From IMG/VR virus record IMGVR_UViG_2778261151_000008: a stretch of 13,815 nucleotides of DNA; one strand, given 5' to 3'. The stretch is from a virus (lineage: Duplodnaviria; Heunggongvirae; Uroviricota; Caudoviricetes). This document shows positions 1 to 3,000 of this stretch, piece after piece. Positions within the stretch are counted from its first letter, which is position 1. Every line of letters begins with the position of its first letter. Position numbers: made by a program.

Positions 1-3000
1 TCTGATGGAAATGGAAGCCACGCAAGCACCTTAAAATCACCATCATACACTAAATCAGTAAGTTGGCAGCATTACCCGTTAATCACGATGTCGTCTTTAT
101 TTATCCTGTCATAATAAAAATGCTTCCCGGAAAAAGTTTTAATAAATGACATTTTGTTCTCCGCGTATATGTGCTGCACCACGCTGAATTCTGGTAAAAG
201 GAAGCCCTCACCATCCGGCGATTATTGAGTCAATTACGTTTCCATAAATGCCCCCGCAGGGGCATTTGCAGTAATGAAATCAGGCGGTGAAAGTACCAAT
301 AAAGGTTTCTACTTTGCTGTCTTTGAATTTCTCAACAAGCAGATCACGAAATTCGTTAGCCATTTCTTCCTGCACCGCCTCCATCTGAATAATGCGCAGA
401 ACCAGTACAGGACGATCGCCAGTGATAATGCTGAGGCGTAATTTAAATGGACGTTCTTTCAGACCTTCAAACGGAACGCATTTAAATTCAAATGCCACTG
501 GCATAATATCTTTGGTTTTCGCTTCGACAGATTCCATCAGGGAGCGTTTGCCGCTGAAGTCATTATCTTCAAAATCAGCGGTCTGGTTTGCTTCAATCGT
601 GATTTTACGGACAGCCGCAGCCGCTTTTGTTGCCTGAATAGCGTCACCATTAGCATCAAAGCCCACAAGGTAGTCGGCCCAGTCTTCAATCCATTCTGCC
701 AGTGACTTCTGGGAATGACGCTCGCCATTAACAGACAACAGAGCAGAGAACGGTGCTGTCTTTTTCAGTTTAAGAGTGGCGGTGTTATCTGCGTGACCTG
801 GTTCATCAATAGTACCTAGGTTAAGCACACTGACGGCTCGCATATTATCGGCATCGATAAAGCAGCGGGTGCCTTCATCTGCAAGATCTTTAGAATAACG
901 GGTAAAGTCATCGATGCTGGCAGTGGAAAGCGCACCACGGAAACGGAAGCGATTTAAATTAAATTTTTCCAGATCATGAATGCGGAAATTCTCAGGCAAT
1001 GCCACAGCATCGGCACCAATCTTACTGATAATTTCATTAACACCCTGAGCAGAAATAAGAGCATGGATTTGATTAATTGCGGTTGCGTCTAAGTTCTGAG
1101 ACATAATAAGTCCTCACTATATAAAGATATTCAGTGATGAGATAAATAATCAGTTAATTAAGAACGATATTAATAACCTGCTGCGCGAAGTTTTCCGTCA
1201 GGTTCACCGGCAAGAGTCAGTAATTGTCCCTGGTCTTCCTGCAGAATAGTCAGGCGACCACCGCGATTGACATACATCGGCGTTTCGGTGGTGTCTTCTT
1301 CAGAAATTTTCCCGCGGTTAGTCGGGCGAACATATGAGAGTTTGTGTTTGATTTTCACACGGTTCTCATCAAACGGTTCGATTTCCAGGTTGAGCGAGAC
1401 CTTACCTTTGGTTTTCGTGTTCATCACACCGGAAGCGACTTCACTGAGAACAGCGCCGATTTTGGTTTCAAATACGCCGCCGTCCAGCTCCCCGATAAAT
1501 GCCTGCACATCAGTACTGCGTTCGCTAGCCATTTTGCTGCTCCTCATCATATCGACCCTGCAAGGTCGGTTGGTTTCTCCACAAAACAGAGAAGAACACC
1601 TGCGGTGACTGCCGCCCGGATGAATTGGGTTATGAGCCCGTCGTCCGGTGATGCTCTTCTCTGTTTTGTAAAAAGAGCGGTACCAGCCGGAAGCAAGGGT
1701 ACAAACTGGTACCGCCAAAGCAGTGGCTGTTGTGGTGGGGTTGTCACTCAGGCGTATGGTCAACCTGACAATCCGGTGTCCTCAACGGGGAAAGAGTAAC
1801 CCCGCCATACTTACCGCCGCGCCATTTCGCGGATTACCACAACGCTGAGAGCACTTAGCCAGTTACGGCACCACACTTTGTCGCGGCTCCATAAATGCCC
1901 TCATCGTTGCCCCCTGGTCTCTTCCCAGGCGTCAAACCGAATCGCCACGCTGGTTAGGCGTCTTATCAGCATCATCATTGACTTGCACATTCCGGCTACC
2001 TGGTTTGTTTGCCCGAGCAAGGAGTGGATTGTCCCCTTTAACGTCCCCAGACCGCTAACGACGCATGTGCCATACGCCGTGTTACAACCAAATTTTGTTT
2101 AATCTTGCCTGTGCTGTGTTTCTTTTAGATACATTATGTATCCCAAGGGTACAATGTCAAGTATAAAAAAACCTGCCGAAGCAGGTTATAAATATTGATT
2201 AGGCCTTTATTATGTATCTTCTTGGTTTTCCTGAGAAAATCACTGTACCAATTATAGAGCAATTACCGTTGATCTTAATGTAAGGTTCAGGCCAGTTTGG
2301 GTTTAATGCTTTGAGGTAACGCTGTGTTCCATCTTCTATCAACCGCTTGAAGGTGGTTTCGCCTGTATCGTGCATCAATGCAATAACGTCGTCACCGTGG
2401 CAGGCAGGGACTTCAGGATCAACAAAAATCATGTCTCCCGGGCGGTACTCATCAATCATTGAATCACCAATCACCCGCAAGATATAAGTCATTTCGCCAC
2501 AGGGTACAGGGCAGGGGTAAGTTTCTGCTGTGCTCAAATCAACCTCAGAATAGCCAACTTCTTTCCATGCTCCGGCCTGTACCCATGATATGACAGGGAC
2601 TAACGTTATTTGTTTGTTAGTGATTGAAACATCAGGTTTTTTTGTGATGTTCGTGGTCTGGTGTTCTTGATCAAGCCATCCGACAGGCAGGTCGAAACAT
2701 TTTTCGATGTGCCGCGCCATGCTGTCACCGATATTTTTAGTAGCACCATCTCCCATAAACCTGCTGGTCTGGGTTGGCTCGCGATCAATCATGGTGGCAA
2801 AGGAAGAATTCCCGCCAACACCATCTCTCAGTTTTCTGGCGTTAGACCGCCGGATGTCATGGACTGTTTTCATAAAGAAATTAAAACCTTTGTACCGATA
2901 AGGTACAAGTATCTTGAAGGTTCATCTTAATCATGTAATATGTATACCGGAGGTACATATTGTATGAAAGCGTATTGGGACTCTTTAACCAAAGAACAGC

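Follow-up and report, generated by a model that had tools for sequence, protein, structure and literature searches.

Over 35 years of study, the small RNA (sRNA) DicF has been treated as a 53-nt molecule. In Escherichia coli K-12, a 190-nt form of DicF requires RNase III and the 53-nt form requires RNase E, and RNase III cutting after the dicF terminator yields a 72-nt DicF; dicB is expressed by read-through. Here, we describe a leader of similar build in a 13,815-nt stretch of DNA from a virus of the Caudoviricetes (IMG/VR record IMGVR_UViG_2778261151_000008), hereafter called the window, which is the immunity region of a lambdoid prophage. The leader, of 590 nt, fills the interval between the repressor gene and the first leftward gene, which encodes a 120-aa protein. 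It is probably built of noncoding RNA modules arrayed as in the dicBF leader of the Qin prophage, and would be transcribed leftward from a repressor-controlled PL-like promoter upon derepression. Read in that direction, it comprises Module A, stem H, Module B, an sRNA-like unit with an intrinsic terminator and a long hairpin (Table 1). These modules recur as separately conserved units in unrelated temperate phages, with their helices kept by compensatory changes, and they are noncoding.

The leader of the Qin dicBF operon, like that of the window, belongs to a leftward operon that follows a repressor gene, and its elements stand in the same order: an H-type stem, Module B, an sRNA with an intrinsic terminator, a long hairpin and the first gene. 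Module B is 93.5% identical over 107 nt to the K-12 sequence directly 5' of dicF, and the GUUGUGG-ended stem is shared, so that homology to the dicBF-type leader includes both the 5' domain and the preceding stem. The slot occupied by Module B and the sRNA is homologous to the DicF precursor, and structural conservation extends to the terminator and the long hairpin. The part from Module B to the long hairpin is a further member of the known dicBF-type leaders, and Module B makes up the body of the 190-nt DicF precursor already known. The leaders differ in that Qin has three small open reading frames (ORFs), ydfA, ydfB and ydfC, upstream and no Module A, whereas the sRNA body in the window has neither a match to the Rfam DicF family nor the segment directed against the ftsZ Shine-Dalgarno sequence. 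An earlier interpretation made from this DNA by itself (the sequence-only reading) had listed a regulatory sRNA and a processing site among the possible roles of the leader; both fit the homology to dicBF, given the 93% identity of Module B, the sRNA unit in the place of DicF and the hairpin analogous in position.

The fold of Module B was scored on 17 sequences, in which 95.6% of the cells were paired and six pairs had changed on both sides, compared to at most two in controls with the structure slid along the alignment. Changes from G-C to G-U fit an RNA of the window minus strand only. In phage P1, the match to Module B lies just past the C1-controlled ban promoter, under a feature that the record calls "dicF-like region". 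We found no description of Module B as a structured element in the searchable literature.

The sRNA-like unit takes the position of DicF: in a leftward operon under repressor control, it follows Module B immediately on the 3' side, and it ends in an intrinsic terminator. The terminator stem carries compensatory changes in homologues (GGUACC/GGUACC to GGUGCC/GGCACC), and the U-tract is kept; a simple terminator scan missed the unit because its loop is 19 nt long. The unit shares UUUGGCGGUAYCAGUUU with K-12 DicF, and the canonical DicF is one body variant of the sRNA-terminator unit found in these arrays. Since the sRNA loop differs from that of DicF, its targets probably differ as well.

The long hairpin begins directly after the U-tract. 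Its arms, 25 nt each, are 84% complementary with a perfect 15-bp core, and the pairing is kept through compensatory changes in homologous loci (L023 and L096). The perfect 15-bp repeat described there is real, with a correction: the second arm lies at 1655-1669 rather than 1657-1671, and the spacer is consequently 59 nt and not 61 nt. The hairpin provides the near-continuous double-stranded RNA of ≈20 bp or more that characterizes RNase III substrates. A hairpin of ≈26 bp begins at the corresponding point behind dicF in Qin; as this counterpart is cut, the window hairpin is most simply seen as an RNase III site in the 5' untranslated region (UTR) of the first gene, and would be cleaved in the same way. 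The Qin and window hairpins are unrelated in sequence, that of Qin being weakly STnc100-like: the dicF-dicB hairpin domain of the K-12 Qin locus (L008, 2933-3142) scored 34.4 bits with Rfam STnc100, below the gathering score of 47. Sub-threshold STnc100-like matches also occurred in two other loci. The RNase III hairpin of the lambda N leader is likewise a long double-stranded stem of a PL leader, placed shortly before the first gene's ribosome-binding site. In lambda, that hairpin follows nutL, whereas the window hairpin follows the sRNA terminator, and no sequence relation between them is known.

In 40 of 51 distinct homologous segments, the minimum-free-energy fold contained stem H as an end-to-end helix; the strands of this helix change together, with compensatory variants visible in the homologues. 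By analogy, it would be an RNase III processing stem. In K-12, an H-equivalent stem precedes Module B. When placed by length, the 190-nt DicF begins within the 3' strand of this stem, 1-6 nt before GUUGUGG. The slot that follows GUUGUGG holds tRNA-Arg(UCU) in 29 and Module B in 25 of the 128 loci listed; the other occupants include structured modules of several unrelated kinds, all closed by GUUGUGG...CCACAAC. Each such cargo is followed by a short linker and then by an sRNA-terminator unit with the 5' arm UUGGCGG and a variable body. In two E. whittamii loci (L075 and L243), the cargo holds GGUUCGAUUCCGGGCGCCCA, which resembles a tRNA T-arm and 3' end; it may be a decayed or non-canonical tRNA, and ARAGORN calls none there.

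Module A, which heads the leader, was traced by an exact 18-mer from its most conserved strand (GUAGCCGGAAUGUGCAAG, also written GGUAGCCGGAAUGUGCAAG; about 19 nt). The 18-mer was found in at least 120 IMG/VR stretches, and the matches listed, together with phage loci, yielded 106 distinct cores. In an alignment of 35 sequences, pairwise less than 92% identical and scored on a hand-refined structure, 95.3% of the cells were paired, and 16 of the 35 pairs showed changes on both sides (114 cells). None of 500 shuffles scored as high, and slid controls were 27-46% paired. The CACC of the 7-nt loop can pair with a downstream GGUG; this pair is replaced by AACC/GGUU in the lineage of the window, and again in a copy from Kosakonia. 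With loci aligned on an independent anchor, the GCACAU of the first loop and its possible partner AUGUGC were unchanged in 125 of 127. Because changes from G-C to G-U are frequent, the RNA can be assigned to the window minus strand, the same strand as that of neighbouring tRNAs. A covariance model of Module A (R1) gave 140.8 bits for the window copy (E = 3e-39) and 133-157 bits for true copies, compared to at most 18.5 bits for loci that share a 16-mer by chance. The model detected a single copy within the 13.8-kb window and none in the immunity region of HK022. Neither the window nor five other loci with Module A gave an Rfam match for it.

Of 5426 complete E. coli genomes, 1835 (34%) contain Module A, with 554 places on plasmids; it is never annotated. 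In P1, P7, D6 and SJ46, it lies between tRNA-Ile and ban on the tRNA strand; in the epsilon15-like phages phiV10, TL-2011b and SPN1S and in a Klebsiella phage, it is directly upstream of tRNA-Arg on the same strand; and in mEp390 it follows the repressor gene, as in the window. Among the matches listed, its hosts also include Kosakonia, Phytobacter, Superficieibacter, Citrobacter, Kluyvera and E. whittamii, and are only Enterobacteriaceae. This range is a lower bound, since the 16-mer used to scan the contigs of species-representative genomes was too short for 596 Gb of sequence and ≈110 of the 120 rows listed were chance matches. One IMG/VR contig (L025) carries two copies on its minus strand, at ≈4896 and at 4156-3994, ≈740 nt apart and in the same orientation; in the second, the near-invariant strand is altered to GGAAGCUGGAAUGUGC.

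The leader of the P1 ban operon resembles that of the window in having Module B just past a C1-controlled promoter and ahead of a terminator, and in carrying Module A, which starts ≈15 nt after tRNA-Ile; both modules are on the tRNA strand. In P1, by contrast, 2.2 kb that include tRNAs and tciABC separate A from B, and Module A is directly followed by ban, without stem H, cargo or sRNA. Among phage RNAs, ROOL, GOLLD and species 1 and 2 of the T4 tRNA cluster are structured noncoding RNAs that adjoin tRNA genes. Module A is like these in being conserved, structured, noncoding, phage-borne and co-oriented with tRNA genes, but at ≈180 nt it is much smaller, the matches listed are from phages of Enterobacteriaceae, and it has no Rfam match to those families. 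HDV-like and theta-type ribozymes also adjoin tRNAs and form a nested double pseudoknot. Such a ribozyme was rejected for Module A, in which two hairpin-loop pseudoknots are arranged serially and for which no Rfam match was found. A preprint on Pas sRNAs concerns sRNAs of the late region. The invariant strings of Module A were found in no paper of the searchable literature, although an unnamed entry in a catalogue of 10,006 candidate viral structured RNAs is possible. Module A thus appears to be a structured RNA described in neither Rfam nor the searchable literature, and it is best regarded as an interchangeable stable-RNA cargo among several, the others being Module B with its relatives and tRNA-Arg(UCU), which such arrays would supply at an early stage of infection.

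As a whole, the leader is strongly structured. The minus-strand RNA (2130-1520) folded at −235.9 kcal/mol, with z = −6.25 relative to shuffles, compared to z = −2.7 for the plus strand, and the G+C content was 53-57%, compared to 36-47% in the flanks. Sensitive BLAST searches against phage genomes divided it into three parts, each matching a different group of phages: about 2093-1837 in P1, P7, D6, SJ46, epsilon15-like phages and mEp390; 1843-1721 in K-12 Qin and P1; and 1737-1533 in SfV, SfII, SfIV, ST64B and others. The entire leader was found at 97-99% identity in phages cdtI, Ayreon and 2H10 and in fifteen Stx2c-converting phages, and matches covering at least 80% of the query occurred in 903 of the 5426 complete E. 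coli genomes, never annotated. A covariance-model search of the leader, of the kind that the sequence-only reading had proposed, gave no real match: Rfam 15, searched within 1533-2125 at the gathering score and at E ≤ 10, yielded only chance-level hits to CC0196 (E = 1.8) and the hairpin ribozyme (E = 7.5). Neither ARAGORN nor the Rfam tRNA model detected a tRNA or transfer-messenger RNA (tmRNA) in the window.

The leader would be transcribed from a PL-like sigma-70 promoter just downstream of the cI terminator (2187-2170). The promoter agrees with the consensus at 11 of 12 positions and is the top-scoring site within 1100-3000, in accord with the promoter named in the sequence-only reading, and its placement puts the inferred transcription start at ~2126. 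Palindromes of 17 bp with the form TGTACC-N5-GGTACA are found at 2137-2153, on the promoter, and at 2890-2906 and 2941-2957, between the repressor and cro-like genes; from their sequence and location, the three are likely to be repressor operators. An exact 11-nt direct repeat, CAAGGGTACAA, is present both in the loop of the sRNA terminator hairpin (1694-1704) and in the operator-like palindrome at PL (2144-2154), and might be due to chance, to a recombination joint or to a distal half-operator. The RNA arrays of epsilon15-like phages follow TTGACA-N17-TATTAC (L003, 2383-2420; L005, 1376-1410; L006, about 1315-1350), with the palindrome TTACCTTTNAGGTAA at the start site and head and terminase genes flanking the region, which suggests that this promoter, too, is repressor-controlled. 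Since arrays follow both the palindrome-linked promoter of the epsilon15-like phages and the C1-controlled ban promoter, early expression under repressor control appears to be a common theme.

A model for the window leader can be proposed from these comparisons. Upon derepression, transcription from ~2126 would proceed through Module A, stem H, Module B, the sRNA unit with its terminator and the long hairpin to the ribosome-binding site. If processing follows that of dicBF, RNase III would cut at stem H and at the long hairpin, and RNase E would trim the sRNA. The stable RNAs released would be Module A, an RNA of ≈174 nt consisting of Module B and the sRNA (the counterpart of the 190-nt DicF), and a short sRNA of the Hfq type. 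The terminator presumably attenuates transcription, in which case transcripts ending there would be ≈457 nt long; much of the RNA probably ends at 1670-1676, and the read-through RNA would carry the early-left genes.

Several points weigh against this model. The cleavage sites and RNA sizes are all taken over from K-12 Qin, and the role of Module A as cargo is a proposal. The structural support for Module B is modest, because its homologues are very alike. In Module A, the near-invariance of both strands deprives the GCACAU/AUGUGC pseudoknot of a covariation signal, two singletons break this pairing without compensation, and variants contradict the two inner GC pairs of P2. For the sRNA unit, the Rfam DicF model (RF00039; gathering score 48 bits) gave no match in 1400-2300 even at E ≤ 10, compared to 76.7 bits for the K-12 control and 30.3 bits for an intermediate variant. 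The UACUCCG by which DicF pairs with the ftsZ ribosome-binding site is absent: where CAGUUUUACUCCG of DicF pairs with CGGAGAGAAACU of ftsZ, the window reads CAGUUUGUACCCUUG, with only the AGUUU part kept. A duplex prediction with whole sequences against ftsZ (RNAduplex) did not discriminate, even for DicF itself. For these three reasons, a regulatory role of the sRNA unit is unproven.

Alternatively, Module A or the whole leader might be a factor-independent processive antiterminator, similar to put or EAR, that allows RNA polymerase to read through the array terminator. The sequence-only reading had raised this by analogy with HK022 put, and a real intrinsic terminator does separate the promoter from the first gene, which has no Pfam family. 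Furthermore, no N-like protein was found among the window ORFs and Pfam matches (genes farther left fall outside the window), as that reading had also stated; Module A starts at about +45 in the window and 10-50 nt past a strong promoter in many loci; and the epsilon15-like arrays carry two terminators ahead of the next ORF. We nevertheless consider an antiterminator unlikely. According to the published description, on which our comparison rests, the put RNAs are ≈70 nt long with two stems, start at about +3 of PL and have a second copy after PR. Both put and Module A are noncoding RNAs early on the PL transcript of a lambdoid phage without an N gene, but Module A differs from put in size (180 nt, or 590 nt for the whole leader, against 70 nt), in fold (several helices and pseudoknots against two stems in a V shape), in position (about +45 against +3) and in copy number, put having left and right twins and Module A a single copy in the window, in which 11 kb to the right of PR are covered. 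The analogy with put was abandoned on these grounds. In addition, Module A of P1 is 2.3 kb from Pban, beyond a terminator and three tRNA genes and directly before ban, and in some epsilon15-like phages Module A is located behind a processing stem, like other cargo; at such sites a cis-acting antiterminator would have little purpose. Of the B-sRNA-terminator arrays with enough upstream sequence, 82 of 103 are without Module A and carry only the repressor gene, ydfA, ydfB and ydfC (and not N) upstream, and yet the dicB gene of K-12 is expressed by read-through. An N-type nut site, with boxA and boxB serving a phage antiterminator protein and host Nus factors, has far less in its favour and is already contradicted by the observations, so that we give it almost no weight. 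It was suggested by the resemblance of CGCUCUUUUUACAA to boxA by eye. The boxA-like string (CGCTCTTTTTACAA, the reverse complement of 1666-1679) is indeed present, but it consists of the 3' arm of the covarying terminator stem (CUGGUACCGC) and the U-tract, and the match is at the level of chance: the lambda boxA 8-mer, with up to one mismatch, has 11 sites in the window against 8.1 expected, and the rrn boxA 13-mer, with up to three mismatches, has no match at this site. Homologues have GCCCUU, GACCUU or GUCCUU in place of the GCUCUU core, with covariation of the stem. The string is not followed by a short hairpin of the boxB type, the next structure being a 25-bp stem that closes a 39-nt domain.

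The remaining alternatives attribute the leader either to decay or to coding. Decaying remnants of genes or tRNAs, or recombination scars, with no function beyond the terminator, would agree with the mosaic nature of the region, with the replacement of a tRNA by Module B in the same slot, with the tRNA-like T-arm remnant in one locus and with the hypothetical ORFs placed here by annotators of phage records. Such an origin is nevertheless improbable, as invariant blocks and compensatory changes extend across lambdoid, P1-like and epsilon15-like phages and across several genera, Module A is found in about a third of the complete E. coli genomes, and the Qin counterpart of Module B and the sRNA is an expressed, processed RNA. 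The same deposited coding sequences (CDSs) could be taken at face value as small proteins: "hypothetical protein" CDSs lie over Modules A, B and C in Ayreon (L001; 3073-3267 and 3369-3488) and in the cdtI and mEp460 records, and stop-free stretches in the region reach 100 codons on the plus strand and 83 codons on the minus strand. This we regard as very hard to sustain. At most 11 of the 35 Module A homologues keep any given frame open, differences in hairpin length among them span all residues modulo 3, and substitutions are compensatory in helices rather than biased toward synonymous changes. Since no frame is conserved, the deposited CDSs are probably spurious. The sequence-only reading, which had named a conserved coding frame in homologues as the result that would overturn a noncoding leader, is upheld in this respect, as in the structured minus-strand character of the region. 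Its claim that no ORF exceeds about 29 codons is correct for ATG starts only: a GTG ORF of 66 codons is found at 1747-1547 on the minus strand, and a TTG start at 1763 gives an in-frame extension of the first gene by 77 codons, neither frame being conserved among homologues.

The array of noncoding RNAs therefore remains our preferred reading, and its cassette-like organization appears to be described in neither Rfam nor the searchable literature. A bolder proposal, which we put forward tentatively and hold at somewhat under an even chance, is that the window represents an unrecognised, widespread system of temperate phages of Enterobacteriaceae, in which repressor-controlled arrays of stable-RNA cassettes carry swappable cargoes between conserved processing stems and end in an sRNA of the DicF class whose seed varies. 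Module A might then be a new class of RNA that acts in trans on a component of the host or its defences, or that catalyses or guides the processing of the array. The 5' domain of the DicF precursor can now be seen as a conserved, pseudoknotted module, common to P1 and many lambdoid phages, in a slot that holds a tRNA in other phages. Module A heads such arrays in one-third of the complete E. coli genomes, among them arrays of Stx2c- and cdt-converting phages and of P1-like plasmids. Should the modules prove to be stable, functional RNAs that are produced upon induction, they would be candidates for effectors that take over the host or counter its defences. In addition, sRNA bodies that vary behind an unchanging scaffold point to a possible natural means of exchanging sRNA seeds. 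Several "hypothetical protein" calls, probably spurious, can be dropped from annotations.

Table 1. Features of the leader and its surroundings in the window, listed in the direction of leader transcription where they belong to it.
Feature	Position	Strand	Remarks
PL-like sigma-70 promoter	2160-2133	minus	−35 TTGACA 2160-2155, 16-nt spacer, −10 CATAAT 2138-2133
Operator-like palindrome	2153-2137		TGTACCCTTGGGATACA; overlaps PL-like promoter
Module A core	2084-1903	minus	structured RNA, ~180 nt; covariance model and covariation
Module A, hairpin P1	2079-2059	minus	conserved 11-nt loop UAUGGCACAUG
Module A, helix P2	2051-2047 with 2003-1999	minus	encloses variable hairpin
Module A, near-invariant single strand	1999-1982	minus	GUAGCCGGAAUGUGCAAG
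Module A, second variable hairpin		minus	between near-invariant strand and P5
Module A, hairpin P5	1961-1947	minus	4 bp, 7-nt loop
Module A, hairpin P6	1929-1913	minus	CCUGG-GAAGAGA-CCAGG; covarying, loop GAAGAGA
Module A, putative pseudoknots	2070-2065 with 1990-1985; 1955-1952 with 1938-1935	minus	
Stem H	1911-1837	minus	long imperfect helix, GCAACGAUGAGGGCAUU... with ...AAGUGCUCUCAGCGUUGU; encloses small hairpin, ends GUUGUGG
Module B	1843-1729	minus	homologous to 5' domain of Qin 190-nt DicF precursor and P1 "dicF-like region"
Module B, closing helix	1843-1837 with 1735-1729	minus	GUUGUGG with CCACAAC
Module B, hairpins			CCGCG-AAAUGG-CGCGG (GC-rich); variable CGGGG...CCCCG
Module B, H-type pseudoknot			GUAUGG with CCAUAC, GGAUUGUCA with UGACAACC
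DicF-position sRNA-like unit with intrinsic terminator	1728-1670	minus	
Terminator stem	1715-1706 with 1686-1677	minus	GCGGUACCAG with CUGGUACCGC; perfect 10 bp, 19-nt loop
Terminator U-tract	1676-1670	minus	UCUUUUU
Long hairpin domain	1669-1581	minus	arms 1669-1645 and 1605-1581, two small hairpins inside
Small hairpin inside long hairpin domain			conserved GGGCUCAUAACCC
Remainder of 5' UTR	1580-1530	minus	small hairpin GACCUUGCAGGGUC (about 1569-1556), then Shine-Dalgarno, ATG
Shine-Dalgarno and start codon of yfdP-like first gene	1545-1540; 1532-1530	minus	GAGGAG; ATG
First leftward gene	1170-1532	minus	120 aa, no Pfam family
DUF2303 gene (Pfam)	280-1104	minus	next leftward after 120-aa gene
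S24-peptidase repressor gene (cI)	2199-2873	minus	
cro-like gene	2964-3164	plus	
CII (CP76) gene		plus	
Q antiterminator gene		plus	farther right

The ribosome-binding site and ATG of the first leftward gene are located as the sequence-only reading had placed them, and the gene is called yfdP-like here, its upstream gene set matching the one with the yfdP annotation in a related phage record. Outside the leader, on the plus strand, Rfam matches to isrK (64 bits; 4116-4192) and C4 antisense RNA (82 bits; 4217-4304) were found inside an ORF at 3756-4592. This ORF also matches Pfam Phage_ASH over amino acids 117-210 (about nt 4104-4385). As the Ash match covers exactly the isrK and C4 RNAs, it may reflect translated RNA genes.

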